Source of the DNA: an uncultured Planctomycetales bacterium
Lineage (GTDB): Bacteria; Omnitrophota; Gorgyraeia; Gygaellales; Profunditerraquicolaceae
Reading direction: 5' to 3'
NCBI GenBank assembly: GCA_964487475.1
Contig: CAZAPM010000001.1
Span: forward strand, 12,374 to 76,373
DNA length: 64,000 bases
Part shown: piece by piece, positions 785 through 28,937 of the stretch
Numbering within the stretch: the stretch's first letter is position 1
Layout: the number at the start of each line of letters is the position of its first letter
Made by a program: the position numbers and the translations under genes
Notes under the pieces: model-generated
What the model saw: only the letters and a program-made list of their open reading frames with translations
Told to the model about the DNA's origin: nothing
Databases searched by the model: none

Positions 785-801
785 CACGTAATGAACAACG
801 G

Positions 802-832
802 GGGGCCAACGGAAACGTTGGCCCCTTTTTTT
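802..832 (+). terminator. rho-independent terminator
   Basis: GGGGCCAACG-GAAA-CGTTGGCCCC perfect 10-bp stem with GAAA tetraloop, followed by TTTTTTT. Confidence 0.75.
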
Positions 833-843: not shown

Positions 844-2031
844 GTGACGGTCGAAACGATCAGCAGTAAGGTGGTCCCGGGTTCCAGCGGAGCAGGTCCG
901 GCCGCGCATCAGGTCCCGGATTCCATTTCCATCGCCAGCAGTTTCCATGATATCCTGGTGTTCGCCCGCAGCCGCAAGGTCACGGACATCCATATTTCGG
1001 CGAACAACGCGTTGGTCTTTCGCCAGTGCGGGAAACTGGTCCCTCAGGGGGAGGAAAGGTTCGACGAGGCGGGAGTCTGGCGGCTGATCGAGTCGTTCAC
1101 CACGCCCGCGCAGCAGGAGGAGCTCAAATCCCGGGGCGACCTGGAGTTCGTGTATGTGATCGAGGGGTACGGCCGGTTCCGCCTGACCCTGATGAAGAAG
1201 CGCGACAGCTGGGATGTCTCCGTCCGTTTGATCGCGCAGGTACTGCCGGCGTTCGAAGACACCGGAATGCCTGAGTCCTGCCGTAAGCTTACCCATTGGG
1301 CGCAGGGTCTGGTACTGGTGACCGGGCCGTTGGGCTGCGGGAAGACCACGACCATGTCGGTGCTGGCGGAGCTCATCAACCGCAGCGAAAAACTGCATAT
1401 CATCACCATCGAAAACCCCATTGAGGTCGTGTTCACCCCGGCCTCCTGCCAGATCTCGCAGCGCGAGGTGCTCTCGCATACCCTTTCCCAGGAGAACGCG
1501 CTGCGGGCGGCGCTGCGCGAAGACCCGGACGTGATCATTGTCAGCGAGTTGCGGGATTTCAGCGCCATCCAGCTGGCGGTGACCGCGGCGGAAACAGGCC
1601 ATTTGGTGCTGGGCACGATGAACACCAAGGACGTGACCCAGACGATCTTGAGGCTGATCAATTCCTTCCCTCCCGAAGAGCGTTCGATCATGCAGAATAT
1701 GATCTCGGAGTCGCTGCGCGGGGTCATCTGCCAGCAGATGATACCCACCAGTGACGGAAAAGGGGTGGTGCCGGCGTATGAAGTGCTCATCGGAACGCAT
1801 GCGGTCTCCAACATCATCCGCAAGGGGGCGTTCGAACACCTGACCACCGCCCTGGCCACGGGAGATGCGCTGGGGATGATGACCATGGATACTTCTTTGA
1901 TGCGATTGTTCAAAAAAGGCCTGATCTCCTGGGATGAAGCGTACGGCCGCAGCGTGAACAAGCGCGAGTTCGAATCAGTGAAGCCGGATGCATCGGGATC
2001 CGGGGGAAGGGTAGCGCATGCCGAATCTTGA
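844..2031 (+). CDS. pilT: type IV pilus retraction ATPase, PilT family (paralog 1)
   Basis: GTG start after a GGAGG RBS. Walker A GPLGCGKTTT. PilT-type N-terminal SDIHI block and C-terminal GMMTMDTSLMRLFKKGLIS motif. Confidence 0.8.
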   Translation: MTVETISSKVVPGSSGAGPAAHQVPDSISIASSFHDILVFARSRKVTDIHISANNALVFRQCGKLVPQGEERFDEAGVWRLIESFTTPAQQEELKSRGDLEFVYVIEGYGRFRLTLMKKRDSWDVSVRLIAQVLPAFEDTGMPESCRKLTHWAQGLVLVTGPLGCGKTTTMSVLAELINRSEKLHIITIENPIEVVFTPASCQISQREVLSHTLSQENALRAALREDPDVIIVSELRDFSAIQLAVTAAETGHLVLGTMNTKDVTQTILRLINSFPPEERSIMQNMISESLRGVICQQMIPTSDGKGVVPAYEVLIGTHAVSNIIRKGAFEHLTTALATGDALGMMTMDTSLMRLFKKGLISWDEAYGRSVNKREFESVKPDASGSGGRVAHAES

Positions 2032-3103
2032 CGCGCTTCTGGCGGAGGTCGTTTCCCGTAACGGGTCGGATCTGCACCTGGCACAGGGGCAGCGCCCGAA
2101 GATCAGGATCCACGGCAGTCTTTCTCCGGTGGAATCGCACGCGGCGGTGCTCACCCAGGAAAGTTTGGCCCGGGACCTGCCCGAATTGTGCAGCCCTCAG
2201 GTGTGGGAAAAATTCAACCGGACCGGGGACGCGGATTTCGCGTATCAGCTCAAGGACGGTACGCGCTTCCGGTGCAATTTCTTCCGCCACTTTTACGGGT
2301 ACGGCGCGGTATTCCGCATGATCCCTTCCCGTGTCCTGACGTTGGAAGACCTGAAGGTCCCGCAGGTGATCAAACACATCATCCAGGCCAAGGCCGGGAT
2401 GATCCTGGTGACCGGCCCGACCGGCAGCGGCAAGTCCTCCACCCAGGCGGCGATCATCCATTACATCAACCAGAACTGGCATAAGAAGATCGTGACGATC
2501 GAAGAGCCGGTGGAGTTCTTCCATCAGAACCTCAAAAGCCTGGTCGTGCACCGGGAAGTGGGCCTGGATACGCCTACGTTCGCCCAGGGGCTGCGGGGGA
2601 TATTGAAGAGCGACGTGGATATCGTGCTGGTAGGAGAGATGCGCGACCGGGAGACCATCGAACTGGCGCTGACCGCCGCGGAAATGGGGATGCTGGTATT
2701 CGGCACGCTGCACACCAACTCCGCCGCCAAGAGCGTGGACCGTATCATCGACAGTTTCCCTCCCAACAAGAAGAACCAGATCAAGGAAGTCCTGGCGAAT
2801 ACCTTACAGGCGGTGGTCTCGCAGCAACTTCTGGTGAGCAAGACCGGGGATTACCGCGTGGTCGCCTGCGAGATCCTTATCCGTACTTCCGGGATGCCCT
2901 CGATCATCCGTGCCGGAGAGGTGTACAAGCTTAACGACGAGATCGAACGCAACAAGGGGATCGGGATGATCTCGATGGACAGCTCGCTGATGAACCTGAT
3001 CGAAGCCGGGCATATCACCCGGCAGGCGGCGTACATGAAAGCGCTCGACAAGCATCTTTTCGAAGAGGGGAAACAACCCTCGCCCCCCGAAGAATATGCG
3101 TAA
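2018..3103 (+). CDS. pilT: type IV pilus retraction ATPase, PilT/PilU family (paralog 2)
   Basis: Walker A GPTGSGKSST. Further PilT blocks SDLHL.., IVTIEEPVEF and GMISMDSSLMNLIEAGHIT. Overlaps the upstream paralog by 14 nt. Confidence 0.8.
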   Translation: MPNLDALLAEVVSRNGSDLHLAQGQRPKIRIHGSLSPVESHAAVLTQESLARDLPELCSPQVWEKFNRTGDADFAYQLKDGTRFRCNFFRHFYGYGAVFRMIPSRVLTLEDLKVPQVIKHIIQAKAGMILVTGPTGSGKSSTQAAIIHYINQNWHKKIVTIEEPVEFFHQNLKSLVVHREVGLDTPTFAQGLRGILKSDVDIVLVGEMRDRETIELALTAAEMGMLVFGTLHTNSAAKSVDRIIDSFPPNKKNQIKEVLANTLQAVVSQQLLVSKTGDYRVVACEILIRTSGMPSIIRAGEVYKLNDEIERNKGIGMISMDSSLMNLIEAGHITRQAAYMKALDKHLFEEGKQPSPPEEYA

Positions 3104-4238
3104 GGTCACGCAGGCGTCATTTGTGCCTCTTATGGCGCAGGCTGCGGTATCTCCCCGTCTGAGGGTCACCCATACCTTTCATACCGCGGACGCGGATCCT
3201 CTGCAGCGGCTGCTCAATGTCAGTCATCCCGGCACGTATGTGCGGCCGCATTGCCATCCCGATCCCCGCAAGGTCGAGGTCTTCGTGGTGCTCTCCGGCC
3301 GGGCGGCGGTGGTGGAGTTCTCTTCCCGGGGCGCGGTGCGTGATATTGCGGTGCTCGATCCCCGCGAGGGCAGCTATGCGGTTGAGATACTTCCCGGGGT
3401 ATGGCATAATTTTTTCTGCCTGGAGGAGGGTACGGTTTTCTTCGAGGCGAAACCAGGCCCGTATCTTCCCGCAGCCGATAAACGGTTCCCTTCCTGGGCA
3501 CCGGCGGAAGGCACGGCTGCCGGCGTGCGTTACCTGCGTATGCTGCAGCGGAGGGCGGGCATGCCGGAGCACCGTCGTAATGAGATCTCCGGGCTTCAGG
3601 CACGAACGCTCGATGCGCGCGCCAGAGACCTTCTGGGGCTGCCGGCGCTGCTGTTGATGGAGAATGCCGGCCGGGCTCTTGCGGAGACCGCGCTGCGGTA
3701 TCTTCCCTCCGGAAAGAAGGTTGCCGTGGTCTGCGGCCGCGGGAACAACGGCGGGGATGGATTGGCGGCTGCCCGGCATCTTTTTTCCCGGGGGGTTTTG
3801 CCGCAGGTGTTCCTTTGCCGGGATAAGGAGTTGACCCCGGAGGCCAGGGTCAATTTTGATGCCTTGAAAGCTTTGGGTGTTGCCGTGCATTCCCTGGAGA
3901 AGTCGGCGCCCGGCCGGTTGCGCCGGATGCTTTCCTCCGCCTCTGTGATCGTGGATGCGCTTTATGGAGTGGGGCTGAAGGGGGGGATCCGCGGGCAGGG
4001 GCTTAAGGCAGTGGATGCCATCAATCAGGCAAAGGCGACAGTGATCTCCGCGGATGTGCCGTCCGGATATGACGCTTCCGCGGGCAGGCCGTTAGGCCGT
4101 TGCGTCAGGGCGACGGTGACCGTGACTTTCGCCGCCGCAAAAAAAGGGATGCGTTCCGCAGAGGGCCGCCGCTGGTGCGGGCTCCTGGAAGTGGAGCCGC
4201 TGGGTGTTGCCTGGGACGTCATCCGGAACGGACGCTGA
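3096..4238 (+). CDS. fusion protein: N-terminal cupin (WbuC-like) domain + C-terminal YjeF_N NAD(P)H-hydrate epimerase domain
   Basis: The N-terminus carries a cupin signature (PHCH...VFVVLSG...PGVWHNF). The C-terminus carries LLMENAGRA...VVCGRGNNGGDGLAAARHL...DALYGVGL, the hallmark of YjeF_N/Nnr epimerase. It is a single uninterrupted frame. Confidence 0.6.
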   Translation: MRKVTQASFVPLMAQAAVSPRLRVTHTFHTADADPLQRLLNVSHPGTYVRPHCHPDPRKVEVFVVLSGRAAVVEFSSRGAVRDIAVLDPREGSYAVEILPGVWHNFFCLEEGTVFFEAKPGPYLPAADKRFPSWAPAEGTAAGVRYLRMLQRRAGMPEHRRNEISGLQARTLDARARDLLGLPALLLMENAGRALAETALRYLPSGKKVAVVCGRGNNGGDGLAAARHLFSRGVLPQVFLCRDKELTPEARVNFDALKALGVAVHSLEKSAPGRLRRMLSSASVIVDALYGVGLKGGIRGQGLKAVDAINQAKATVISADVPSGYDASAGRPLGRCVRATVTVTFAAAKKGMRSAEGRRWCGLLEVEPLGVAWDVIRNGR

Positions 4239-5395
4239 TGAGGGCGAGCGTTCGGGCGGGGATCCTTTTGGTACTCTGCGTGCTGCTGGCCTGGTTTTTT
4301 CTCGGCACGGCTCTTGGCGCGCTGCTGGTGGTGCGTTCCTTCGCAGAGTGGGGCACCGGGGTGGTTCTGATCTCTCCGGGAGAGGCGAAAGGGAATCTGG
4401 CCGGGGGAGTGGTCTTTACCGGGGTCAAAGCGCTGGTCCGCATACCCGGAGTAGAGGGGTATCGCGCGATCGAGGCGCAGGAGTGTAAGGTCGAGCCTTT
4501 CTCGGTATTCCGTCCATTGCCCAGGATATCGGTCCGCAACGCCAGGGTATTCATTACCGGGATCCAGCCGGTGTATTGCGCGGGGACGTTCCAGGGCGGT
4601 GAATTCCGCGGCACGGTGTTCAGTGATACTCTGGAGCTTGGGGAGATCGCCGGACTTTACGAGCCTTTGCACCGGGAATTCGGTATCCGCGGCACGGTGA
4701 AAGGGCTCGATCTGGAAGTGTATGCCCGCGGCAGTATGTTGCGCATCCGCGGGGTATTCCTGGTGGAGGATGCTTCGTTCAGGAATTTTTCGGTGGTTTC
4801 GGTCCCGTGCACGGTGTCGCTTGAGGGCAGGATGGATGCGGCGCCGCCGCAGTGGAGAGGGGAACTGGCGTACCGGGGCGGCACGCTCCTGGCTGCGAGG
4901 ACCTCTATCGAACTGGTACACGGAGCGGTGATTTTCGACGGCGATATCGGGAAACCTTCCCTGGCGCTCAAAGGATCGGCGGTTGTCGAAGGAGTGAAGA
5001 TCTCCCTGTTCCTGCGGGGCACGCTGGATGCCCCGGAACTGGCGGTATATTCCGATCCAACGTATTCGCGCGAGCACGTGCTACTGATGCTGGTTACGGG
5101 CAAGAGCTGGCAGCAGGCGCCGCGTCCTCCGGGGCAGCCGGGGAGGCAGTTGGACCTGGTCAAGGATTTCGTGGATTATCTGTTCCTGGGAGGCAACGCC
5201 GCAAAACTTACCGAATGGTTCGGGATCAAGGATATTTCCGTGCAGTATGACGGCCAGAGACAGGGGATCGCGGTGCGTAAGGATATCCTTCCCGGTACCG
5301 ATGTCACGGTCGGGGTTTCCCGTTCCGGGTCATCCGTGTCCGCGGAGCAGTCCTCCGAGAATAAGTATGAACTAAAGATCAAAAAACAGTTTTAA
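4238..5395 (+). CDS. membrane-anchored TamB-like (DUF490 C-terminal domain) protein, short form
   Basis: Start trimmed to the ATG that overlaps the upstream stop (ATGA). N-terminal TM helix (GILLVLCVLLAWFFLG). The C-terminal SREHVLLMLVTGKSW block and ...YELKIKKQF end resemble the TamB DUF490 tail. Confidence 0.4.
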   Translation: MRASVRAGILLVLCVLLAWFFLGTALGALLVVRSFAEWGTGVVLISPGEAKGNLAGGVVFTGVKALVRIPGVEGYRAIEAQECKVEPFSVFRPLPRISVRNARVFITGIQPVYCAGTFQGGEFRGTVFSDTLELGEIAGLYEPLHREFGIRGTVKGLDLEVYARGSMLRIRGVFLVEDASFRNFSVVSVPCTVSLEGRMDAAPPQWRGELAYRGGTLLAARTSIELVHGAVIFDGDIGKPSLALKGSAVVEGVKISLFLRGTLDAPELAVYSDPTYSREHVLLMLVTGKSWQQAPRPPGQPGRQLDLVKDFVDYLFLGGNAAKLTEWFGIKDISVQYDGQRQGIAVRKDILPGTDVTVGVSRSGSSVSAEQSSENKYELKIKKQF

Positions 5396-5407: not shown

Positions 5408-5731
5408 ATGGGTTTTGATGAGCTGAGGAATACCCTTAAAGAAGTGGTCACCGAAACGATCCGCATGGATTGCGATAACCTTTACGAGGCCGTGGTGGCG
5501 AAAGAACATCTGTCGCCGCTTACACAGAGGCTGCAGCGTTTTTTCGGGGCTCCGGCCTGGCCTTCCAAAGTCGCGTTATCCGCCGCGGTACAGGAAGCGA
5601 TCCGTTCCTACGGGGGAGTAATGCCCGGGCAGACGCTGTATTTTTTGCAGCGTGAGGGGAATACCTTCTTCGCCATGCTTTGGCCGTGGCAGGACGGTCA
5701 GCGCACGACCCTCAAGGTGGTGCGGCAATGA
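5408..5731 (+). CDS. hypothetical protein
   Basis: AGAGGAG RBS before the ATG. Coding-like codon usage. No recognisable family. Confidence 0.4.
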   Translation: MGFDELRNTLKEVVTETIRMDCDNLYEAVVAKEHLSPLTQRLQRFFGAPAWPSKVALSAAVQEAIRSYGGVMPGQTLYFLQREGNTFFAMLWPWQDGQRTTLKVVRQ

Positions 5732-6177
5732 AATATTCCTCCGGGTCTGTCGGCAGGGTGTTCGTGGTGAAGTTCGACGACCACGACGTGCTCCTGGACA
5801 GTCTTAAGGCGTTAGCGCGCAAGGAACGTCTCCGTTGCGCCACCTTCCTCTTCATCGGAGCGCTGCGTAAGGGGGTGATGGCCGCGGGTCCCAGGAAGCC
5901 GGTGATCCCTCCTTCGCCCAATATGCGTTCCTTCAAGGACGGTTGGGAAGTGCTGGGAGTGGGTACTCTTTTTCCCGGCAAGGACGGGCCGCAGCTGCAT
6001 GTGCACGGCTCCATGGGCAAGGCCCGCGCGGTGATGACCGGGTGCGTGCGCGGCGCGTCTTCGGTGTTCCTGGTGGTGGAAGCGGTGGTCTTCGAGCTCA
6101 AAGGCGTCAAAGCCCGCAAGGAGATCGATCCTGCCACGGGGCTGAACCTGCTTAAGATCATTTCAGGAGGGGAGTAA
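5728..6177 (+). CDS. PPC/DUF296 domain-containing protein
   Basis: Start trimmed to the ATG overlapping the upstream stop. GRVFVVKFDDHDVLLDSLKAL...LHVHGSMG...VFLVVEAVVFEL matches the PPC (DUF296) fold pattern. Confidence 0.5.
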   Translation: MKYSSGSVGRVFVVKFDDHDVLLDSLKALARKERLRCATFLFIGALRKGVMAAGPRKPVIPPSPNMRSFKDGWEVLGVGTLFPGKDGPQLHVHGSMGKARAVMTGCVRGASSVFLVVEAVVFELKGVKARKEIDPATGLNLLKIISGGE

Positions 6178-6404
6178 TGGATAAGGTGCGTGTGGTATTG
6201 CTTCTGGCGATGGTAGGGCTCCTGGCGGCGTCTTTTGTCCGGCTCGGGGAGATCAGCGTTGCATTGACGCAGTTGCGGCAATCGCAGGCGATACCGGATC
6301 CTTCGATGGGAGCGCTGCAGGCTTCCAACAGGCTTTTAAGCGAGGAGATCGTCGCGCTGCGCCAGCAGCTGGCGGCCCTGGCGGCAAAGTTCGACAGAAA
6401 ATAA
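6177..6404 (+). CDS. small membrane/coiled-coil protein, hypothetical
   Basis: TAATG overlap with the upstream gene. N-terminal TM helix followed by a coiled-coil-like tail. Confidence 0.4.
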   Translation: MDKVRVVLLLAMVGLLAASFVRLGEISVALTQLRQSQAIPDPSMGALQASNRLLSEEIVALRQQLAALAAKFDRK

Positions 6405-6560: not shown

Positions 6561-6950
6561 ATGCATCTAAGGTACTGCGGCCCCGATCGGAGGCGCTTCC
6601 AGCGTCTTAACGTCAACCTTTCAGTGTTTTTCAAGATCCTTACCCCCTTGGACGTGCGGCAGGCGTACGGGGAAAGGGAGCGCGAAGCTTCGATGCTCGA
6701 TATCTCGGGAGCGGGGTGCGCGCTGATGACTTCGTGCGATATCCCCAGGTTCAGCATCATTTCCCTGCGTTTCTACGTGTTCAAGACCGATTCCCGCGGT
6801 ATGGTGAGCTTTTCCGATCCCGTGGAAGTGGTGGCGGAAGTGCGTTCGGTAGTGCCCTTGGATAACGGGGAGTACCGCATCGGCGTATGCTTCCAGGAGA
6901 TCAAGCAATCCAACCAGACCCTGGTCGAGGAGTTCATTACCGCCAACTGA
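6561..6950 (+). CDS. PilZ domain-containing protein
   Basis: RRRFQR (RxxxR) motif and DISGAGCAL (DxSxxG) motif. Confidence 0.65.
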   Translation: MHLRYCGPDRRRFQRLNVNLSVFFKILTPLDVRQAYGEREREASMLDISGAGCALMTSCDIPRFSIISLRFYVFKTDSRGMVSFSDPVEVVAEVRSVVPLDNGEYRIGVCFQEIKQSNQTLVEEFITAN

Positions 6951-8821: not shown

Positions 8822-9916
8822 ATGGGATGTGTCGCGGTAACCGGAGTCGGGGTGGTAGCTTCTAACGCGATCGGCCGTGTCCGATACGGCGATGCGCTTA
8901 TTGCGGAAGAGAGCGGCATCAAGCCGGTCACCCTTTTCGATACCGCGTGTTTTAAAGCCAAGGCCGCCGGTGAGGTCAAGGATTTCGATCCCGCCTCTTT
9001 CCTGGGGCCTAAGGGGCTGCGCACGCTCGACCGCAGCACCAAGCTGCTCGCGGTCGCGGCCAAGCTGGCGCTCGAGGATGCCGGTATCATTATCACCGAT
9101 GAGAATTCCGCCGGCATGGGTATGGTCACGGGAACCACCATGGGCAGTATCCGCAGTATCAGCGAATTCGACCGGGAATCCCTGGTCGAGGGCCCCCAAT
9201 ACGTCAATCCCGCGTTGTTCCCCAACACCGTCATCAATTCCCCTTCCAGCCAGGTTTCCATAAGATTCCGCATCCGCGGGCTCAATACTACTATCTCTAC
9301 CGGGTTCACCGCCAGTGCGGATGCGGTCGGGTATGCGCTGGACGCGTTAGGCAACGGAAAGGCCAGGACCGTGCTGGCGGCCGGGGTGGAAGAGCTCTGT
9401 CCGGAGATATTCTGGGCGCTGGAAAAAACCCGTTTCTCAGCGGTGTTCGGGGAAGGAGCGTGTGTACTGGTGCTCGAGGATCCCCGGGATGCCGCGGCAG
9501 CGGGGCGGGTGCCGTTGGCCTATATCCGGGGATATGGCGCGGGGTTCGAACCTTACCGTACGGATAAGATCAAGGCGGGTGCGCCCGGACTGCGCCGCGC
9601 CATGCGGGCGGCGCTGGCGGCGGCAGGATGCGGCAGCGAAGATATCGATTGTATCGTGTCGGCGGCGAATTCCATCCGCGAAGCGGACCAGGCGGAAGCG
9701 GGCGCGATCCGGGAGGTCTTCGGCGAAAGCGCGCGCCAGGTGCCGGTGACCGCGTACAAATCCCTGATCGGAGAGTGTATGAGCGCCTGGGGAGCCCTCG
9801 GGATCGCCGCCGCGGTGGAGATGCTGCGCCGGGGCCAGAGGCGCAACATCCTGGTCAATGCGTTAGGCCCTACGGGGTGCAGCAGCAGCGTGATAGTGTC
9901 GGCGAAAGGAATCTAA
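8822..9916 (+). CDS. beta-ketoacyl synthase-like protein lacking catalytic Cys/His/His (chain-length-factor-like partner)
   Basis: KS fold from end to end. The active-site Cys is replaced (TISTGFTAS instead of T-A-C-x-x-G) and both catalytic His motifs are absent (SAANS and IGEC instead of HGTGT and GHxxGAAG). Confidence 0.7.
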   Translation: MGCVAVTGVGVVASNAIGRVRYGDALIAEESGIKPVTLFDTACFKAKAAGEVKDFDPASFLGPKGLRTLDRSTKLLAVAAKLALEDAGIIITDENSAGMGMVTGTTMGSIRSISEFDRESLVEGPQYVNPALFPNTVINSPSSQVSIRFRIRGLNTTISTGFTASADAVGYALDALGNGKARTVLAAGVEELCPEIFWALEKTRFSAVFGEGACVLVLEDPRDAAAAGRVPLAYIRGYGAGFEPYRTDKIKAGAPGLRRAMRAALAAAGCGSEDIDCIVSAANSIREADQAEAGAIREVFGESARQVPVTAYKSLIGECMSAWGALGIAAAVEMLRRGQRRNILVNALGPTGCSSSVIVSAKGI

Positions 9917-9918
9917 CC

Positions 9919-10668
9919 ATGGAATTTTCCGGGAAGCATGTGCTGGTCACGGGAGGCACGCGGGGGATCGGCCGGGCGATCGCGGTGATGTTCGCTTCCC
10001 AGGGAGCGAATGTCGCGTTCACCTACGCGCTCAGCACGGTGCAGGCGCAGGAGGTGCTGGAGGTGCTGTGCAGCCACGGGGTCAAAGCCCTGGCGATCCA
10101 GGCGGATGTCAGGGATTTTTCGGCATCGAAGGAGGCGATCGAGCGGGTCAAGGGCGAGTTCGGGGGGCTGGATATCCTGGTGAACAACGCCGGGGTCACC
10201 CGGGATAAGGCGTTGATGATGATGTCCCCGGAGGAGTGGGAAGAGGTCATGGATACCAACCTCCAGGGTACGTTCAATTTCTGCCGCAACGCCATCATCA
10301 CCTTCCTCAAGCAGAAGAGCGGGTGCATCATCAACCTGACTTCGGTCAGCGGGATGATCGGGATGTCCCGCCAGACCAATTATGCCGCCTCCAAGGCGGG
10401 GATCATCGGATTCACCCGTTCCCTGGCGCGGGAAGTGGGAGGGTACGGGATCCGGGTCAATGCCGTGGCTCCCGGGTTCGTGGAGACGGACATGGTCGCA
10501 CATCTTAAAGAGCAGTTCACCCAGGCGATGAAGCAGGCGATACCGCTGGGCCGTTTCGGGACTTCGGGCGAGGTGGCGGCCGTGGTGCGGTTCCTGGCAA
10601 GCGAAGAGGCACGGTTCATTACCGGCCAGACGCTGGTGGTCGACGGCGGATTGTCGCTGGCGCTGTAA
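9919..10668 (+). CDS. 3-oxoacyl-ACP reductase-like SDR (FabG paralog)
   Basis: Start trimmed to MEFSGKHVLVTGG, 2 nt after the upstream stop. TGGTRGIG Rossmann motif, NNAG, and the S...YxxxK triad (YAASKAG). Confidence 0.8.
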   Translation: MEFSGKHVLVTGGTRGIGRAIAVMFASQGANVAFTYALSTVQAQEVLEVLCSHGVKALAIQADVRDFSASKEAIERVKGEFGGLDILVNNAGVTRDKALMMMSPEEWEEVMDTNLQGTFNFCRNAIITFLKQKSGCIINLTSVSGMIGMSRQTNYAASKAGIIGFTRSLAREVGGYGIRVNAVAPGFVETDMVAHLKEQFTQAMKQAIPLGRFGTSGEVAAVVRFLASEEARFITGQTLVVDGGLSLAL

Positions 10669-10676
10669 AGGAGCGG

Positions 10677-11120
10677 ATGATGCACATCGACGAGATTCTT
10701 TCTATTCTGCCGCAACGTTACCCGTTCGTGATGATAGACCGGGTGCTGGAGTTGGAGCCGGGAGTAAGGATCCTCGCGGCCAAGAACGTGAGCACGAACG
10801 AGGATTATTTCCGGGGACATTTCCCGGAGCGGCCGGTGATGCCCGGAGTGCTGATGCTGGAGGCTTTGGCGCAGGCGTCCATCGTATTGTTCTACGCTTC
10901 CAAGCCGGGGGTGCAGAGTTCGCAGAGTCCGCAGACGCTGTATTATCTCGTATCGGTCAAGGTGCGGTTCCTGGCACCGGTGTTCCCCGGAGATCAGCTG
11001 TTGCTGGAGGTCAAGCCTTTGAAGATGGTTCCGGATGCGGGGATAGTGGAGGTTTCCGCAAGAGTAGGGGAGATCGAAGTGGCGCGTGGCGAGATGAGCT
11101 TTGCGGCGAGGCAGGGATAA
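10677..11120 (+). CDS. 3-hydroxyacyl-ACP dehydratase (FabZ-like)
   Basis: The hotdog-fold FabZ signature HFPERPVMPGVLMLEALAQ is present. Confidence 0.85.
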   Translation: MMHIDEILSILPQRYPFVMIDRVLELEPGVRILAAKNVSTNEDYFRGHFPERPVMPGVLMLEALAQASIVLFYASKPGVQSSQSPQTLYYLVSVKVRFLAPVFPGDQLLLEVKPLKMVPDAGIVEVSARVGEIEVARGEMSFAARQG

Positions 11121-12335
11121 ATGGAGCGCGTGCGGGTAGTGGTCAGCGGCATCGGGGTGGTTTCTTCCGTGGGCACCGGACGCGCAGCGTTCTGGGAGGC
11201 TTTGGAAAAGGGCGCGTGCGGCACGTCCCGCATCGAATCATTCGACACCTCCAATTTCCCCACCCATTTCGGAGGGGAGGTCAAGGATTTCTCCCCGCAG
11301 CGTTTCATCCCGAGGCAGCGGCTTTCCCGGATGGGCCGGGCCTCGCAGCTTTCCCTGGCTGCGGCGCACCTTGCGGCCGACGATGCCGGGGTATCGCGGG
11401 CCGCGCTGGATGCCGCCAACTGCGGGGTGTGCCTGGGCACGACCATGGGGGAATCCCAGGTGCTGGAGCGGCTCAATGAGATCTGGGTCAGCCGCGGCCA
11501 GGAGCACATGGAAAGCGGGATGATGCTGCAGTATCCCTGCAATATGCTGGCGGCGAACGTCGCGATCGGGTTCAAACTTAAAGGCCCGCATTTCGTGATC
11601 CCTACCGCCTGTGCCGCGGGGAACTATGCCATCGGATATGCCTTCGACAAGATCCGTTCGGGTGAGGCGGAGATGATGTTCGCCGGAGGGGCGGATGCGT
11701 TCTCCAAGATCGCGTTCGTGGGGTTCAACCGTCTGTATGCGGTCGCGCCGGAAAAGGTGCAGCCTTTTGACCGTAACCGGAAAGGCATGATGGTGGGGGA
11801 AGGGGCGGGTGTGCTCCTCCTGGAGTCGTGGGAGAGCTGCCGGAAACGCAAGCGCATTCCCTATGCCGAAGTGGCGGGATACGGGTTAAGTTGCGATGCG
11901 CATCATATGACCGCGCCGCAAAGCGACGGGATCGCCGCAGCGATCGAGAAAGCGATCGCGGAGTCGGGGGTGTCCAAGGATGAAGTGGGATACTTTAACG
12001 CGCATGGCACCGGCACTCCGGCCAACGATAAGGAAGAGTGCCTGGCGTTGCAGAAAGTGTTCGGCGAGAGGCTGGCATCCCTGCCGGTAAGCTCCATTAA
12101 ATCGATGCTGGGGCACACCATGGGAGCGGCATCCGCGATCGAGGCTATCGCCTGCTGTTTTGCCCTGACCGAAGGTCTGATCCCTCCCACGATCAATTTC
12201 GAGACTCCCGACCCGGAGTGTCCGATAGATTGCGTGCCAAATCACGCCCGAAAAGCGAGGGTGGAAGTGGCGGTGAACAGCTCCTCCGCCTTCGGCGGGA
12301 ACAATGCCTGTCTCGTCCTGAAAGCGGCCAGATAG
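11121..12335 (+). CDS. beta-ketoacyl-ACP synthase (KAS I/II-like, catalytically intact)
   Basis: Active-site Cys (PTACAAGNYAIG) and both His motifs (HGTGTPANDKEE, GHTMGAASAIEA). Begins 1 nt after the FabZ-like stop. Confidence 0.85.
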   Translation: MERVRVVVSGIGVVSSVGTGRAAFWEALEKGACGTSRIESFDTSNFPTHFGGEVKDFSPQRFIPRQRLSRMGRASQLSLAAAHLAADDAGVSRAALDAANCGVCLGTTMGESQVLERLNEIWVSRGQEHMESGMMLQYPCNMLAANVAIGFKLKGPHFVIPTACAAGNYAIGYAFDKIRSGEAEMMFAGGADAFSKIAFVGFNRLYAVAPEKVQPFDRNRKGMMVGEGAGVLLLESWESCRKRKRIPYAEVAGYGLSCDAHHMTAPQSDGIAAAIEKAIAESGVSKDEVGYFNAHGTGTPANDKEECLALQKVFGERLASLPVSSIKSMLGHTMGAASAIEAIACCFALTEGLIPPTINFETPDPECPIDCVPNHARKARVEVAVNSSSAFGGNNACLVLKAAR

Positions 12336-12339
12336 ATAT

Positions 12340-12368
12340 TGACATAACCTACGCTTTGGCCTATAGTT
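12340..12368 (+). promoter_or_regulatory. near-consensus sigma70 promoter (TTGACA-17-TATAGT)
   Basis: Perfect -35, 17-bp spacer and a TATAGT -10 in an AT-richer intergenic region upstream of the 12396 gene. Confidence 0.5.
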
Positions 12369-12395
12369 AAATACATACTGAGTCTGTCATCTCCG

Positions 12396-12977
12396 ATGAA
12401 GAAATTCCTGCGCGTGTGCATCCTGGCGGCTATAGGTGCTCTTCCCGCATGCGGTTGGGCCTGGGAAGGGAAACCGGCATCTTTGGAATCATGGGGAGTG
12501 CTTGCGGGGTTCGGTACGGCGTCCCTTCGGGAGCAGGGGGCATATCATACCGTGCCCCTTTCAGTCGACTTCGATTTTACCCTTAAGCCTTATCTGAAGG
12601 AGTTCGGTCTTTCCTGGCCGGGGATGGTGCAGATGCAGATCGAGCCGTACCTCGCACCGGTGATCGACCCGCATGCCGGGATCGAACTCGGCAATTATTT
12701 CTTTCTGAAGATCGGCCTTGTGCCCCAGACATGGAAATTCCAGCCTTATGTCAAGGCCGGGCCCGGTGTCTCCTATATGACGGTGCAGACCAGGGAGCAG
12801 GCAACGCAGTTCAATTTCATCGAAGCCGGCGCGGTCGGCGCGCACTTTTTTTTCCGGAAGAACCTGGGGTTGACCGTCGAATGCCGCGCGCGGCATCTTT
12901 CCAACTCCGGTATCGCGCATCCGAACAAAGGGATCAATTCCTATTACGGGATGCTGGGCGTCGCGTATCTGTTCTAA
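12396..12977 (+). CDS. outer-membrane beta-barrel protein, lipid A 3-O-deacylase (PagL)-like
   Basis: Signal peptide. Alternating beta-strand pattern ending in an aromatic residue (GVAYLF). HxSN motif (ARHLSNSG) resembling the PagL His/Ser catalytic pair. Confidence 0.5.
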   Translation: MKKFLRVCILAAIGALPACGWAWEGKPASLESWGVLAGFGTASLREQGAYHTVPLSVDFDFTLKPYLKEFGLSWPGMVQMQIEPYLAPVIDPHAGIELGNYFFLKIGLVPQTWKFQPYVKAGPGVSYMTVQTREQATQFNFIEAGAVGAHFFFRKNLGLTVECRARHLSNSGIAHPNKGINSYYGMLGVAYLF

Positions 12978-13018: not shown

Positions 13019-16000
13019 ATGCCCTTACGTTATCCTTCCCTGAGAAGCCTGATCGTCCTGCTTTCGCTTTGCGCGTGCTGCCTCGGCATTCCCGTGTTCG
13101 TGAGCGCGGCGAACGATATCTTCGTGGCGGCGAATTCCACCTGGAAGTACGATGATACGGGTACGGACCGGGGCACGGCCTGGTTCAACGCCTCGTATGA
13201 TGATTCCGCCTGGCCTTCGGGCGCCGGACAGTTCGGGTACGGTGACGGAGGAGAAAGCACGCTTTTAGGGTATGGCCCCGACGCAAACAACAAATACCCC
13301 ACCTATTATTTCCGCAAGTCGTTCAACGTGGCCAATGCCGCCCTCTATTCTGACCTGATCTTCTCGTTGTTGAGGGATGACGGCGCGGTCGTCTATCTTA
13401 ACGGGGAAGAGATATACCGGGATAATATGCCGGGAGGGGCGGTGGGTTATTCTACCCTTGCTTCCTCTGCGGTCGCCGGCGCCGCCGAATCCACGTATTA
13501 CGTCTTTCCCTCCATCCCTACGAACCTGGTCTCCGGGACCAACGTGCTGGCAGTGGAGGTCCATCAGAACGTCGTTACCAGCAGCGACCTGAGTTTTGAT
13601 TTCAAGCTCGAGGGCACGCTCGGGGAGGTGAACGTGAGCGCGTATACCACCGGGACTCCGTCGCTGCCTCCGGCATCGATCACTCCCGGCAACGGCAGGG
13701 CCCTGGCGACCTTCCGCTTGACGGGAGCCGGCCCGCTGACCGGGATCATCGTTTCCGAATACGGGACCGTGGACGCGGATACGGATCTCACGTCGGTGAA
13801 GCTTTATTCCGATGACGGCGATGGGAACTGGGAACCGGCTTCGGATACCGTGCAGTTGGGCAGCACCACTTCGTTCTCTTCGCAAGCCGCATCCTTCAGC
13901 GGGTTTACGCTCATCGCCGGAAGCACGACGTACGTGCATGTGGTGGCGGATGTGCAGAATTCCGTAGCTGACGGCGAAACGGTCGGGCTGCGCATCGTCC
14001 AGGCCAGCGACGTGACGACGGCGTTCCCCGTGTCTGCGAGCTCCTGGCCGGTGTCGGCCGGCACTTCGCCGGTGCTGCTGGACGCGATCTCCCTGCAGTC
14101 GTATTCGGGAGGGACCCCGGCTATGCCGCCGGCCACCCTGCCGGCGAACGCCACCCGGCAGTGCCTGTCCACGTTCTATTTCAGCGGCGGGGGCAACCTC
14201 CTGGGGATGAACTTCACCGATTACGGGACCAGCAACGTGACCGCGGACCTTTCCAACGTCACGCTCTATCTGGATGACGGGGACGGGAACTGGGAATCGC
14301 TGCAGGATACCACGGTGCTCGGCGCGGCGACTTCGTTTAACGCAGCCGAGAAAGCGTTCTTTTCCGGGTTCAACGTCACTTTGCCAGAAGATGCCTATGT
14401 GCATGTGGTCGCCGATGTCGCACAGGATATCCTGAAGAACCAGACAGTCAATATCGGGATCAACGCGGCAGGGGATGTCATCGCGTCCGATGACATCGCC
14501 TCGGCATCCTGGCCGTTGCAGGCGGGTGCGTCCAGGTTGATGGGGATCTATCCCTACCTGCAGAACGTGACCACGTCCACCATCAACGTGCTGTGGATCA
14601 CGGACGATGCCTTGAACACCACGTTGGAGTACGGTCTTACCTCTTCGTACGGCACTACGGTTACCGACGCTTCTGGAGTGACGCTGCACAGCGTCAATCT
14701 TACCGGATTGCAGACGGACACCAAATATTACTATCGCGTAAGGTCGGGGGATATGGTCAGCCGGGCCGCTTCCTTCAAGACCGCGCCTGCTTCGACCAGC
14801 GGGTTCACTTTTCTGGCGTACGGGGACAGCCAGGGGACCGGCACGGGCTCCGGCTACAATACCCTGCACGAGTCGGTGGTCAACGCCACGCTGCCGTACG
14901 CGAACAATACCATCGTCCTGCGGATGGGGGACCAGGTCTTTGCGGAATCCATCGATGAGTGGGAGCCGAAGTTCTTCCTGCCGGGACGCAACCTTTACAG
15001 CAATAATACCGCGTACCCGGCGCGCGGCAACCATGAGGAGGGGGCGGCATTGCTGCAGCAGTACTTCGCGCCTCCGGCAGTGGGCGGGTCCGGCAGCGAG
15101 CGGTACTACTCCTTCAATTACGGCAATACGCACTTCGTCTGTCTGGATACCAATCAGGCGCATAATTCCGGCAGCGCGCAGTATACCTGGCTGGTATCCG
15201 ACCTCGATTCCGCGGCCGCCACGTCCGCTACCTGGATCGTGGTGTGGTTCCACCATCCCGGGTTATCCTCCTACCGGGAGGATGCCGTGGTCAAGAGCGA
15301 TCTCCTGCCCTTGTTCGAGAGCAAGGGAGTGGATATCGTGTTCAACGGGCACAACCATTTTTATGAACGTCATAATAAGGACGGGGTTTACCATGTGACG
15401 TGCGCGGGAGGCGGCAACACGCTTTATGCCACGGATGACTCCGCCACTACCGCGTACCGGGAGAATTACCGCAGTACCCTGCATTTCCTGAAAGTCGAGA
15501 CGGGCGCTTCCCAGATGCAGGTGACCGCGTACGATACGAGCGGCGCGGCATTCGATTCTTTCGTGGTGCCCCGGAGCACGACGGTCTCCGCATACGGCTC
15601 CGGCACTCCGGCGGCGCCGCCCGCCAGCGTCGCCGCGGGCTCGGCGGCCAACTGCCTGGGGACGTTCCTTTTCGGGTCCGGTGGGACAGTCTCTGCCGTC
15701 ACCCTGACCGAGTACGGTACCGCAAACGCCGCCGCCGACCTTTTGAACGTAAAACTTTTCCTCGATGACGGAGACGGGAACTGGGAACCGGCGCAGGATA
15801 CGACCCAGCTGGGCGCGACCACGGTGTTCGATGGTTCCTCCCAGGCTTCCTTTTCCGGATTTTCCCTGGCTGCCGGCCCGACATCGTACGTGCATGCGGT
15901 CGCGGACGTTTCCGCATCCATTTCTTCCGGTGTTACTATCGGCGTCGAATTGCTGCAGGCTTCCCATGTGACCTCTACCGCGACGGTCCAGGCTGCGGCC

Positions 16001-19000
16001 TGGCCGGTGCAGCTGGGTACGACCAGTCCTTCGGCCGGGACCATCGATACGCCTGCCGCCGCCAGCGTGGTGGGTCCTTCCCCCACCATCACCGGTACGG
16101 CTGCTGCCGGATCTGCCGTGACCCTGCAGGACGGAGGGGGCACTCCCCTTGGCAGTACCACTGCGGACGATAACGGGAATTTCCGCCTGGCGGTGACCGC
16201 TCCTTTAGGGGCGGGCGCCCGGACCCTGCGGCTTTTCGTGAACGGAGTGGAGAAGGCCTCCGTCAATGTCGTGGTCGATCTTTCCCCCGATGCTGACGAG
16301 CAGCCGGTGATCACTTCTCCGGCGGATGGTGACACGGTAAGGGGAAAGCGCCCGGTGATCTCCGGCATGGCGACGCCCGGCGCGCTGGTCACGCTGACCG
16401 CGCTGGACGTCAACGGCAACCTGACGACGATGGGCACTGCCACCGCCGATGCTTCCACCGGCGCGTTCGCCATCACTCCTTCAAGCGACGTGCCGGCAGG
16501 CGCGAACCAGCTGACAGTGACCTGCAACGGCGTCACCAGCACGGTCATCGACGTGATCTTTACCGATCCTTTCGGCGTGGTGTTCGATTCCCTGAGCAAC
16601 GCCCCCATTGCCGGCGCCCGGGTCACGATCTATTACGACAGCGATCCCGGGGCAGGCCGGACGTGGATCCAGGCGGTGCCGGGAGTGCATATCGCAGGCG
16701 GCGACCTTAACCCGCAGACCACCAATGCCGCCGGCCAGTACAGTTTCCTGACCATTGACGGCGATTTCTACATCAGCATCACCGCTCCCGGATATACGTA
16801 CCCTTCGGTGCGCACGTCATTCCCCGCCGGCCGCGTCATCGTCAACGGGTCCAAGGGAGAGATCTTTACCGTAGCCGGGGTGGTCATCGAGATGGACCAC
16901 CCCATGGACCCGGGAAGCGCGCTGCTTAAGGTGCGCAAGGACGCGAACAAGAAGGAAGCGCACGTCGGCGATATCGTCACCTATACGGTGGAGGTGGAGA
17001 ATCCCACCGCGTCCGCCGCCGCGGGAGTATATCTCGAGGACCGCATCCCTCCGGGGTTCAAGTACATCGGTGGCAAATCCTTGCTGGACGGGGCGCAGGC
17101 GCCTGATCCGCAGGGCACTTCTATCCTGACCTTTTCCGTAGGCACCGTGCCGGCGCTGTCCAAGCGCACGCTTAAATATCAGCTGGTCGTGGGCGCGGGG
17201 GTGAGCTTCGGGAAATACGAGAACCATGCCCACGCCAAGTACCTGGACGGCACCACTGTGTCCAACGTCGCGGATGAGACGGTCAAGGTCGTCCCTGACG
17301 CGCTTTTCGATATGGGCACGGTGATCGGCAAGGCGTTCTATGATACCGACGGTAACGGGATGCAGGATAAGGGCGAACCCGTCGCTCCCTATGCCCGCAT
17401 CGCCATGGAGGACGGCACGCTCATCACTGCCGACGCGGAAGGCAAGTTCCACGCGGCCGGCATACTTCCCGGCAGGCATGTGTTCAAGATCGACCCGGCC
17501 AGTCTTCCTCCCGGGACGGCAGCGCAGGAAGGCGCTCCGGTGATCGTGGATATCACCCCCGGGATCATGGCCAAAGTGAATTTCCCGCTGCAGGGAACAC
17601 CTGCGGGGGACCTGTGGCGCATCGACCGCGGGATCCCGAAGCCCCGCTTGAGCGTGGGGATCTACCAGGATGCCGTGGTGTACCGTAAAGGCGCTCCGGC
17701 TGAGCAGCATGTCTTCCGGGTGTTCACCAATTATCCCGCGTTCATCGAGCGCTGGCAGCTCGATATCCGCGATACGCACACCGGCGCGCTGGTCCGCAGG
17801 CTGGAGGGCCCGGGAGACGATTTGCAGCGGCCGCTCCCCTGGAACGGCCTGGATTCTTCCGGCAGGATGCTGCGCAGCGACAGGGAGTACACCTATCAGC
17901 TGGCGGTGTTCGGCGCATCGGGAGAGAGGGATGTGACCGGGGCCAAGGCCCTGCGGGTGATGGAGCAGGAAGGCCCGCAGACCGCCGATGCCCGGGTCGA
18001 CCTGGATTCCTTCATGGTCGAAGCGAAAAAACGCAAGGAGTACTTCTCCCGGGTCGCTTCCGCCAGCAGTCTTTCCGAGCAGCGCATCCCGCTTCCGGGC
18101 GAGGCCTTGACGGTCCGCGTTCCGCATGCGGCCGATGCGCAGGTGTACGTCGGCGGGTTCTCCGGCCGGGAGCTGACGCTGGAGGCTTCCGAGGGGGTGG
18201 CCGAGACCATCCTGCCCAAGGGTGTATACCAGGTCTCTTCCGGGGATGCGCAGCCGCAGGTGATAAGCGTGGGTGACGACCCCTTCTTCTTTGTGGCCAT
18301 GGGAGACGGGAAGGTCGGATATAATTTCAACCGCGGGCACGTGGAGCCCATCGAACGCAATGACGCCTACCAGAAAGGATTCTGGAAAGAGGGCCGGGTG
18401 GCGTACTACCTCAAGGGTAAGGTCAAGGGCAAGTACCTGATCACCTCCAGCCTGGATACGGCACGGCAGCAAAAGGAGCTTTTCAAGTCGCTCGACCCCA
18501 ACAAGTATTATCCCGTGTACGGAGACGCTTCGAGCACCAGTTACGCGGCGGCGGATACCCAGGGCCCGTTGTACCTGCTGGTGGAGTGGGATAAGTCCTC
18601 TGCGGTCTGGGGGAATTACCACACCCGGATCGACCGTACCGAGTTTGCGCGGTTCGACCGCACCCTCTACGGAGGGAAGGTCGATTACGAATCTACGGCC
18701 ACCACCAAATTCCAGGAGCCGGTGACCAGGGCGGTCGGGTTCCGGGCCACTGCCAAACAGCGCGCCGGCCACAACGAGTTCCTGGGCACCGGAGGTTCCT
18801 TGTATTATCTTAAGCACCGCGGAGTGATAGAGGGGTCGGATAAGGTGCGTATCGAAGTGCGCGATTCCGTGACCGGCCTGGCGGTTTCCAGCCGGCAGGC
18901 GGTGAGCGGCAGCGATTACCGCATCGATTATGCCCAGGGCCGGATCGTCTTCGAGAAGCCCGTGCAGATGCTGGCCGCTTCCAACGCCCTGATCTCTTCC

Positions 19001-24986: not shown

Positions 24987-25988
24987 ATGAAGATCATTGT
25001 TGATGCCATGGGGGGCGATCATGCTCCCGAAGTGGTGATCGCAGGCGCGATCGATGCGGTCAATGAGTATAAGGTCCCGGTTACGCTGGTCGGCGATCAG
25101 GATACGGTAAAGGCGTTGCTGTCCAAGCACCAGTACCGGGGTGATCTGATAGACGTGGTGCATGCCTCGGAGGTGGTGGGGATGTCGGAACCCGCCTCCA
25201 CCAGCGTGCGCCGCAAGCGGAACTCCTCGATCGTGGTGGGTATGACCCTGGTCAAGGAGGGGAAAGGCGACGCCTTTTTCAGCGCCGGAAACACCGGCGC
25301 GGTGGTGGCGGCAGGCGTCCTCGGCCTGGGGCTGCTTCCGGGGATCGAGCGTCCCGGGATCGCGATCATGTGCCCCAATCTCAAGGGCGCTTCCCTGGTG
25401 ATCGATGTCGGGGCCAATATCGACCCCAAGCCTTCGCATTTCCTGCAGTACGGGATCATGGCCGATACGTATTGCCGGCAGATCCTCAACCGTTCCAATC
25501 CGACCGTCGGGATACTCAACATCGGCGAAGAGGAGGGCAAGGGCACCGGATTGATCAAGGAAGCCCGGGAGCTCCTGGAGAAGAGCGGTCTCAATTTCAT
25601 CGGCAACGTCGAAGCGAAAGAATTCTTCTCCGGGAAAAGCGACGTCATCATCTGCGACGGGTTCGTAGGTAACGTCGCGTTGAAGGTCTCGGAAAGCGCC
25701 ATCGAAGCCATGATGGTGTTCCTGAAGCGACATCTCTTAAGCAACCTCTGGGGCAAGATCGGCATCCTTTTCCTCAAGCCCAGCCTGAAAAAATTCAAAA
25801 AAGACCTCGACTACTCCGAGTTCGGAGGAGCTCCTCTCCTGGGGGTCAACGGCGTGGTGATCATCGGCCACGGCCGTTCCAACGCCTATGCCATCAAGAA
25901 CGCGATCCGGGTGGCCAAGGAGGAAGTCGAGCGTAAATGCAACGACAAGATCATCGAAGCAGTGTCCCGTATCCAGCCGGCGACCTGA
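24987..25988 (+). CDS. plsX: phosphate acyltransferase PlsX
   Basis: MKIIVDAMGGDHAP... typical PlsX N-terminus and length. Confidence 0.9.
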   Translation: MKIIVDAMGGDHAPEVVIAGAIDAVNEYKVPVTLVGDQDTVKALLSKHQYRGDLIDVVHASEVVGMSEPASTSVRRKRNSSIVVGMTLVKEGKGDAFFSAGNTGAVVAAGVLGLGLLPGIERPGIAIMCPNLKGASLVIDVGANIDPKPSHFLQYGIMADTYCRQILNRSNPTVGILNIGEEEGKGTGLIKEARELLEKSGLNFIGNVEAKEFFSGKSDVIICDGFVGNVALKVSESAIEAMMVFLKRHLLSNLWGKIGILFLKPSLKKFKKDLDYSEFGGAPLLGVNGVVIIGHGRSNAYAIKNAIRVAKEEVERKCNDKIIEAVSRIQPAT

Positions 25989-25996
25989 GATAACCC

Positions 25997-26974
25997 ATGA
26001 AAAAAGTCGGCATTATCGGAGTAGGGGAGTATCTCCCCAAAAAGGTCCTTACCAACGCGGATCTGGAAAAGATGGTCGAGACCTCGGACGAGTGGATCAC
26101 CACCCGTACCGGGATCAAGGAACGCCGGGTCGCGGCCAAGAACGAGGCGACTTCCGACCTCGCCGCGAAAGCGGCGCTGGACGCGCTGGCGCACGCCAAG
26201 GTCGATCCCAAGGACCTGGGGCTTTTGATCGTCGCTACCATCACTCCGGATATGCAGTTCCCTTCCACCGCCTGCCTGGTGCAGGATGCCATCGGCGCCA
26301 AGAAAGCCATTTGCTTCGACATCTCCGCCGCCTGTGCGGGATTCGTGTACGGGCTGACCATCGCGCAGCAGTTCATCGCCCGCGGCGACATGGGGTATGC
26401 GCTGGTGATCGGGGCGGAGAAACTCACCGCGATCACCGATTGGACCGACCGCAGCACCTGCGTGCTTTTCGGGGACGGTGCGGGAGCCGCGGTGCTGGGA
26501 GAGACCAAGTCCGGAGGGATACTTTCCAGTTATTTGGGAAGCGACGGAGGGATGCGCGAGCTGCTGATGGTGCCCGGTGGCGGTTCCCGTAATCCTGCCA
26601 GCGCCAAGACGGTCGAAGAGCGCCTGCATTTCATCAAGATGAGGGGCAACGAGCTTTTTAAGATCGCGGTCAACGCCATGGCGGATGCGGCCAAGCAGGC
26701 ACTGGCCCAGGCAGGCCTGACCTGCGAAGATGTCGACGTGGTGATCCCGCATCAGGCCAATGAGCGGATCATCTCCGCAGTGGCCAAGAAACTCGGGCTT
26801 CCTGACGAGAAGGTGTATCTCAATATCGCCAAGTACGGGAACATGTCTTCCGCGTCCGCCGCGACTGCGTTATGCGAAGCGGTCAAAGAGGGCCGCATCA
26901 AGAAGGGTGATGTGGTCCTGGTGGATACTTTCGGGGCGGGGCTGGTCTGGGGAGCGTGCGTGATAAAATGGTAG
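25997..26974 (+). CDS. fabH: 3-oxoacyl-ACP synthase III
   Basis: Active-site region AACAGF, the ...HQAN motif, and a GNMSSAS C-terminal block. Confidence 0.9.
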   Translation: MKKVGIIGVGEYLPKKVLTNADLEKMVETSDEWITTRTGIKERRVAAKNEATSDLAAKAALDALAHAKVDPKDLGLLIVATITPDMQFPSTACLVQDAIGAKKAICFDISAACAGFVYGLTIAQQFIARGDMGYALVIGAEKLTAITDWTDRSTCVLFGDGAGAAVLGETKSGGILSSYLGSDGGMRELLMVPGGGSRNPASAKTVEERLHFIKMRGNELFKIAVNAMADAAKQALAQAGLTCEDVDVVIPHQANERIISAVAKKLGLPDEKVYLNIAKYGNMSSASAATALCEAVKEGRIKKGDVVLVDTFGAGLVWGACVIKW

Positions 26975-28604: not shown

Positions 28605-28622
28605 CCCTAAAGGAGGAAAAGA

Positions 28623-28928: not shown

Positions 28929-28937
28929 GGTCAAGCC

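Follow-up and report, generated by a model that had tools for sequence, protein, structure and literature searches.

A WbuC-family cupin and an NAD(P)HX epimerase domain joined end to end in one bacterial reading frame

When two domains that are otherwise carried by separate proteins are found in one reading frame, does this reveal that their activities belong together, or does it record an accident of gene organization? The question is raised by a 380-amino-acid open reading frame (ORF) in a 64,000-nucleotide stretch of contig CAZAPM010000001.1 from an uncultured bacterium (assembly GCA_964487475.1; the whole stretch is referred to here as the window), in which a cupin of the WbuC family is followed directly by the YjeF_N domain of NAD(P)HX epimerase. 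The in vivo role of this epimerase is debated, and a moonlighting, B6-linked function has been proposed for it largely from fusion and clustering evidence (PMC5938422). The wbuC gene, for its part, has repeatedly been reported beside mcr-9 and blaCTX-M, clinically important resistance genes, and a cupin–epimerase fusion might in principle act as a Rosetta stone for both families. Here we describe both halves, their junction and their relatives. The fusion pairs two known families in a new way and does not amount to a system of a new kind, and we regard it as probable that it is a genuine, lineage-specific, end-to-end fusion of a complete WbuC cupin gene and a complete stand-alone-type epimerase gene, which arose by loss of a stop codon and left the two activities independent.

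The amino-terminal half belongs to the WbuC family. Residues 4–136 match TIGR04366 ('WbuC family cupin fold metalloprotein') with 139–142 bits against a curated cutoff of 42 (E = 1e-41), covering positions 2–132 of the 132 in the model, and the same half also matches PF19480 (DUF6016) with 45–48 bits. An AlphaFold2 model of residues 1–155 is very confident (pLDDT 95, pTM 0.88) and has the predicted double-stranded β-helix fold of cupins; of the 560 PDB matches that Foldseek returned for it at E ≤ 1e-3, 50 were listed, and every one of these is a cupin-fold protein. A first-pass annotation of the window, made from the sequence alone, had proposed a cupin, perhaps WbuC-like, in the first 150 or so residues, and had named profile and structure searches as the means of refuting it; both searches uphold the proposal. 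At the sequence level, no WbuC-family structure was detectable in the PDB, the best profile match being FdtA (E = 0.04). The closest solved relative of the cupin is CapF, which acts on a UDP-sugar.

The residues expected of a working metal site are in place. In an alignment of the fusion cupin with its 13 closest relatives (14 sequences, 36–54% identity, the relatives being free-standing proteins of 155–191 residues), the metal-ligand set His52, His54, Glu61 and His104 is invariant (14/14), and this is the HxH...E...H site that the annotation had read in the motifs PHCH and GVWHNF. Also invariant are Arg21, Arg23, His29, Arg38, Tyr48, Arg50, Pro51, Glu117 and Lys119. The basic residues among them hint at a ligand with a phosphate or nucleotide group, and most likely this half continues to run its own metal-dependent reaction, on a sugar-type substrate that carries such a group.

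The carboxy-terminal half is an NAD(P)HX epimerase domain of the stand-alone type. It matches PF03853 (YjeF_N) with 161–163 bits (cutoff, 24.9) and, over residues 169–371, TIGR00197 (yjeF_nterm) with 151 bits (cutoff, 88.6), in agreement with the earlier assignment from its LLMENAGRA motif; a VCGRGNNGGDG motif is present as well. A phmmer search with this half reached the epimerase domain of Nnr from T. maritima (TM0922; PDB 2ax3) at E = 1.3e-25 and mouse AIBP (2dg2) at E = 6.6e-14, and the GNNGGDG, DALYG and DVPSG motifs are conserved between the fusion and these solved structures. Lys349 aligns with the capitalized lysine of TM0922 'tvtfgvpKig' and of AIBP 'sltapKks'. In E. coli the conserved lysine, K192, is required for at least 95% of epimerase activity, and every validated enzyme, mouse NAXE among them, has it (PMC5938422); Lys349 is equated with K192 through that statement, the alignment itself covering TM0922 and mouse AIBP. 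The nearest homologues, from metagenome bins of Omnitrophota and Planctomycetota, are stand-alone proteins of 210–240 residues with 44–48% identity. Most likely this half can still convert R- and S-NAD(P)HX into each other and, because the signature residues are conserved on both sides of the junction, both halves look catalytically competent.

The combination of the two was found nowhere else. When the full-length protein was compared with 5.8 billion 90%-identity clusters, only its own cluster spanned both halves, and the other matches covered 49–59% of the query, corresponding to the YjeF_N part. Likewise, an exhaustive phmmer search of 1.84 billion 50%-identity representatives gave no second protein matching both halves: the fusion itself scored 828 bits and the next match, a YjeF_N-only protein, 174 bits. 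Any fused relative would match through both of its domains and head the list, and none does; a search with the cupin alone returned free-standing proteins only. The cupin–YjeF_N architecture, earlier flagged as unusual, is thus unique in very large collections. A published survey of epimerase fusions lists dehydratase and plant PPOX partners and no cupin, and reports clustering of epimerase genes with alr, pdxJ, gadA and acpS (PMC5938422).

Proteins with two matching stretches and lengths of 368–489 residues were considered as further fusions and rejected, as all ten that were checked are tandem YjeF_N–YjeF_N proteins. Such tandem proteins, 368–419 residues long and without a dehydratase domain, are recurrent (P0146, P0229, P0250, P0145, P0159, P0162, P0171, P0206, P0245 and P0027). 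Their N-terminal match is the weaker one, and by length alone they could mimic a cupin fusion. The family looks undescribed.

Where the two halves meet, the boundaries of the free proteins coincide. The five shortest stand-alone cupins (155–160 residues, including the closest relative) end at projected residues 155–160 of the fusion, and the N termini of 65 stand-alone YjeF_N matches project to a median residue of 159 (interquartile range, 156–161), 55 of them within residues 150–165. Judged by this meeting of cupin ends and epimerase starts in the alignments, two complete proteins are joined without a linker, and the C-terminal helix of the cupin continues directly into the residue at which free epimerases begin. 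An internal ATG, encoding Met156, stands at this position, 31 residues ahead of LMENAG (32 in P0005, from Omnitrophota), and a GGAGG motif resembling a Shine–Dalgarno (SD) sequence precedes it. A full GGAGG is found at 9 of the 47 listed gene starts of the window, beginning 9–17 nt upstream, compared with a chance rate, for positions −16 to −5 of all ATGs, of 1.0% on the minus strand and 2.8% on the plus strand. Both the sequence and the spacing of the internal pair are typical of real starts in the window, and the epimerase looks as if it keeps its own ribosome-binding site and start codon inside the ORF.

A promoter-like site on the plus strand also lies in the cupin half (3382–3410; TTGAGA, 17 nt, CATAAT, with a TG-extended −10), about 150 nt 5′ of the internal ATG, and could drive separate expression of the epimerase. 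It is a weak consensus match, and five sites of this kind occur in 7 kb against 2.3 expected.

The junction is real. Both halves are in frame 0, the alignment to free cupins stays in frame up to residue 155, and the other two reading frames contain stops in the junction region. An indel therefore cannot explain the merger; only a missing stop could. Moreover, four assemblies share the same 60 nt at the junction, namely the window, a 6,050-bp JGI contig (L001; sample 3300076594), a 2,645-bp JGI contig (L096; sample 3300076266) and a Logan assembly of SRA run SRR12447079 (L097), which cover at least three samples or runs and come from different pipelines (JGI and Logan). A 190,907-bp NCBI contig carries the protein as well. 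Over 2.6 kb, the sole variation in L096 is an A-to-C single-nucleotide polymorphism (SNP) at its position 406 (window position 1699), which changes PilT1 M286L; because of this lone SNP, the records appear to represent near-clonal but distinct populations. A frameshift or sequencing error, which the annotation had named as a second way to refute its reading and for which it had advised a check by read mapping or re-sequencing, is ruled out by the shared frame together with the identical junction.

The ORF overlaps its neighbours at both ends. Its extent and single frame are as annotated earlier, and so is the 8-nt overlap of its ATG with the preceding gene, a second PilT-like gene that ends in TAA at 3101–3103; at the other end, its TGA shares one nucleotide with the ATG of a TamB-like gene (TGATG, 4236–4240). 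With such overlaps on both sides, the ORF sits within a tightly packed operon. The databases hold the identical protein as P0398 (380 residues) and, with the start called at GTG 3123, as P0001 and P0399 (371 residues). The comparison favours ATG 3096 as the start, because homologues align from residue 1 and the TIGR04366 match begins at residue 4. P0399 and P0001 differ solely in the translation of the GTG start, and therefore the data contain no diverged copy of the fusion.

These features suggest how the fusion may have formed. The wbuC and yjeF_N genes would first have been adjacent and separate; loss of the cupin stop codon, for example by a TAG-to-CAG change at codon 151, would then have merged them, probably recently, into one gene for a two-domain protein of 380 residues in which both activities are probably still independent, and initiation at Met156 may also yield free epimerase. 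Stop loss is the simplest history because the GGAGG and ATG of the epimerase survive inside the ORF. Codon 151 is the candidate for the former stop: of codons 147–155, its CAG alone is one substitution, a transition, away from a stop (TAG), and a hypothetical TAG at this position would give a 12-nt spacer that holds the SD-like motif.

Several observations weigh against this history. No relative is close enough to display the unfused state (the nearest cupin has 54% and the nearest epimerase 48% identity), and a scan of GTDB representative genomes gave no close relative; for this reason, we infer the former adjacency and the TAG-to-CAG step from the relic SD and ATG only. The closest relative of PilT2 (62% identity) keeps the pilT pair, but the genes downstream of it are unrelated, with a carbamoyltransferase in that place. 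In addition, the fusion is on record from what is essentially a single population (0–1 mismatches over 2.6–5.8 kb), and these records therefore give no sign of selection having kept it over evolutionary time. As a singleton, it also leaves some room for a functional coupling of its halves.

Among the other explanations, a neutral or decaying fusion would mean that one half matters: either free epimerase made from Met156 is what the cell uses and the fusion is a tolerated by-product, or the function of the cupin has been lost. Both halves, however, keep every residue that is invariant in their families, the cupin model is very confident, codon-position GC is even across the ORF with no sign of decay, and the ORF is tightly embedded in its operon. 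We therefore find this explanation unlikely, even though the placement of the internal GGAGG and ATG would suit initiation well, the promoter-like site, a weak match, lies upstream of them, and the fusion seems young and limited to a single population.

The contexts of both families bear on a functional link between the halves. The first-pass annotation had suggested that the cupin might couple another step to epimerization. Gene neighbourhoods and co-occurrence lend this idea no support. YjeF_N was found within the 4–5-kb flanks of none of 89 other WbuC-type cupin loci (80 from a metagenome scan plus others), and the genes beside this cupin subfamily do not recur from locus to locus: even the largest families among them, which by similarity to known proteins resemble His-tRNA synthetase, an Fpg-type glycosylase and an ABC-transporter permease, reach no more than 6 of 88 loci. 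Around the three closest free YjeF_N genes, the neighbours are unrelated and include no cupin, and the individual cupins and epimerases whose contexts were examined all differ in them. A 143-amino-acid gene upstream of the closest Omnitrophota YjeF_N (L005) was considered as a hidden cupin and rejected for want of similarity. Profile scans of the window ORFs found no B6, alr, acpS or sugar-nucleotide genes.

The annotation was right that no YjeF_C partner is visible nearby: tblastn with two YjeF_C domains against the 64-kb window gave nothing (best E = 0.29), and no Carb_kinase domain appeared when most of its long ORFs were scanned against Pfam and NCBIfam. Free epimerases normally have the dehydratase elsewhere in the genome, and the absence of YjeF_C from 64 kb therefore says little.

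On this evidence we consider quite unlikely a coupled bifunctional enzyme of the Rosetta-stone kind, in which the cupin step is linked to NAD(P)HX repair or to a B6-related epimerase function, be it that the cupin replaces the missing YjeF_C dehydratase or that it handles another damaged nicotinamide nucleotide, with both halves working on the same metabolite. Earlier YjeF_N fusions, with the dehydratase (in 97% of the prokaryotic genomes in which both genes occur) and with plant PPOX, have been read as functional hints (PMC5938422), but the present one is confined to a single population, and the SD and ATG preserved inside it look more like the trace of a recent accident than like part of an optimized bifunctional enzyme. 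The lack of YjeF_C in 64 kb would suit a coupled enzyme, but the dehydratase may simply be encoded elsewhere. Both halves retain their signature residues, the many invariant Arg and Lys residues of the cupin are compatible with a nucleotide or phosphate substrate, and CapF, its closest solved relative, acts on a UDP-sugar; against these stand the 89 WbuC loci without a YjeF_N gene nearby, the closest free YjeF_N genes without a cupin neighbour and a cupin subfamily without any conserved neighbour. More specifically, we give very little credence to a real metabolic link in which the WbuC cupin acts on a damaged or modified nicotinamide or nucleotide-linked metabolite that the epimerase also handles; if true, it would make the fusion a dehydratase-independent metabolite-repair module, or a pointer to the long-suspected second function of the epimerase.

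Last, a false merger of two separate genes through an indel, base or gene-calling error is barely credible and is excluded for practical purposes, because, although the junction coincides exactly with the boundaries of the stand-alone homologous genes, with an SD and ATG at the second half and a CAG one substitution from a stop at codon 151, the frame is the same up to the junction, the junction is base-identical in four assemblies, one with an independent SNP elsewhere, and the protein is also present on the NCBI contig.

The stop-loss fusion of two complete genes is thus the reading that we prefer, and the two activities probably remain independent. Because the fusion is limited to one population, looks like a recent stop loss and has no co-occurrence support, function should not be transferred between the WbuC and YjeF_N families on its strength without experiments. 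Its value lies elsewhere: it is a clean natural example of the birth of a bifunctional ORF, with what appear to be the old ribosome-binding site and start codon still visible inside. The positions of its features are collected in Table 1.

Table 1 Features of the cupin–YjeF_N fusion ORF, in window coordinates
Feature	Coordinates	Strand	Basis
Full cupin–YjeF_N fusion ORF, 380 aa	3096..4238	+	Stop TGA 4236-4238; ORF list and sequence
WbuC-family cupin half, aa 1-155, complete domain	3096..3560	+	Profile match
Cupin motif 1, GTYVRPHCHPDPRKVEVFVVLSG; predicted ligands His52 (3249-3251), His54 (3255-3257), Glu61 (3276-3278)	3231..3299	+	Alignment
Cupin motif 2, PGVWHNF; predicted ligand His104 (3405-3407)	3393..3413	+	Alignment
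Codon 151, CAG (Gln), candidate lost stop of the cupin gene	3546..3548	+	Per-codon table
GGAGG, Shine–Dalgarno-like motif, 6 nt 5′ of the internal ATG	3550..3554	+	Comparison with start sites of the window
Internal ATG, Met156, start position of stand-alone YjeF_N	3561..3563	+	Projected N termini of 65 homologues
NAD(P)HX epimerase (YjeF_N) half, aa 156-380, stand-alone type	3561..4238	+	PF03853, TIGR00197, phmmer
Epimerase GNNGGDG loop, aa 216-222	3741..3761	+	Identical in alignment with TM0922 and AIBP
Epimerase DVPSGYD motif, aa 320-326	4053..4073	+	Compared with DVPSGID (TM0922) and DIPSGWD (AIBP)
Lys349 in TVTFAAAKKG	4140..4142	+	Aligned with the conserved lysine of validated epimerases

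The genes around the fusion encode a PilZ-domain protein, a TRL protein, two PilT-like ATPases, the TamB-like protein and a PCC-domain protein. The tandem PilT-like ATPase genes (844–2031 and 2018–3103, plus strand) overlap each other by 14 nt, and the pair is also kept in the nearest relative (L098, 5645–8068), where the genes downstream differ. Genes for PilZ-domain proteins flank the region on either side (14–397 and 6561–6950, plus strand). The TamB-like gene (4238–5395, plus strand), translationally coupled to the fusion through the TGATG overlap, encodes a membrane-anchored protein of 385 residues that matches only part of PF04357 (profile positions 154–324 of 381) and is unusually small for the TamB type. 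A strong hairpin resembling an intrinsic terminator (800–827, plus strand; 12-bp stem with 8 GC pairs, followed by a T-run) lies directly after the TRL lipoprotein gene and 17 nt ahead of the first pilT start; because of it, pilT–pilT–fusion–tamB may form a transcription unit of its own, or one that read-through controls.

The window as a whole is ordinary chromosomal housekeeping DNA, with genes for DusB, two fatty-acid-synthesis sets, PagL, RecG, PlsX, LeuCD and LeuB, Asd, TruA, arg genes, LysA, DapF, UvrA and ExbBD; an Rfam scan of the window gave no matches. The named nearest homologues come mostly from Omnitrophota bins (PilT2, 56–62% identity; epimerase, 46%), and on this basis we tentatively place the lineage in Omnitrophota, as a poorly sampled member. 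One of the two fatty-acid-synthase-like sets (8822–12977, plus strand) adjoins a homologue of the lipid A 3-O-deacylase PagL and comprises a 364-residue KS-like protein with a split FabF match, an SDR, a FabA/FabZ-like dehydratase and a FabF-like KS; it is distinct from the canonical plsX–fabH–fabD–fabG–fabF cluster at 24987–30185. A 2,688-residue ORF (13019–21085, plus strand) with a purple-acid-phosphatase N domain, a calcineurin-like phosphoesterase domain (residues 513–781) and Big_6 and DUF11 repeats is probably a surface or secreted phosphoesterase. Some ORFs had no Pfam match, at E ≤ 1e-3 for 5408–5731 and 6177–6404 (both plus strand) and at E ≤ 1e-6 for 40385–41113 (plus), 47189–49030 (minus) and 62920–63570 (plus); they include a 242-amino-acid gene between argD and argF and a 613-amino-acid minus-strand ORF amid a plus-strand region.

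How, then, does the fusion compare with known systems? Its cupin resembles the WbuC family (TIGR04366/PF19480) in its full-length match, in a length equal to that of free proteins (155–191 residues), in its predicted barrel, and in the invariant His-x-His...Glu...His site with conserved Arg, Tyr and Lys residues. It differs in carrying a C-terminal YjeF_N domain, whereas the WbuC relatives retrieved are all free-standing, and in its setting: wbuC is usually reported from an O-antigen or sugar-nucleotide cluster or from beside mcr-9 or blaCTX-M, and the fusion locus is in none of these. The O-antigen or sugar-nucleotide setting, absent here, is contextual and not strictly defining for WbuC. The literature searched mentions wbuC mainly as a gene that flanks resistance genes, and no functional study surfaced. 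CapF (Cap5F) of S. aureus (PDB 2zkl and 3st7), an enzyme of C3-epimerization and C4-reduction in UDP-L-FucNAc synthesis, is the other cupin of reference. Its cupin follows an SDR reductase domain in the chain and has a UDP-4-keto sugar as its substrate (PMC3699295); the fusion cupin, in contrast, is N-terminal to YjeF_N and has no UDP-sugar pathway genes nearby. Similarity between the two cupins is below profile detection at the sequence level, and CapF was not among the PDB sequence matches.

With the stand-alone epimerases (YjeF_N, TIGR00197, EC 5.1.99.6; mouse AIBP/NAXE and yeast Nnr1), the second half of the fusion shares a complete domain with its motifs and lysine, but the fusion has a 155-residue N-terminal cupin that is found in no other member. 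The bifunctional Nnr/YjeF proteins (NF007856) and the plant epimerase–PPOX proteins likewise use YjeF_N as one of two modules. Compared with bifunctional Nnr, the partner in the fusion is a cupin and stands on the N-terminal side; NF007856 scores 102 bits against a cutoff of 703, over model positions 24–220 of 510 only, and PF01256 (Carb_kinase/YjeF_C) has no match in the ORF. Finally, the tandem YjeF_N–YjeF_N proteins (P0146, 381 residues; P0229, 376; P0027, 407) have a similar length and a strong YjeF_N match in the C-terminal half, but their N-terminal half is a second, weaker YjeF_N domain, whereas in the fusion it is a cupin.

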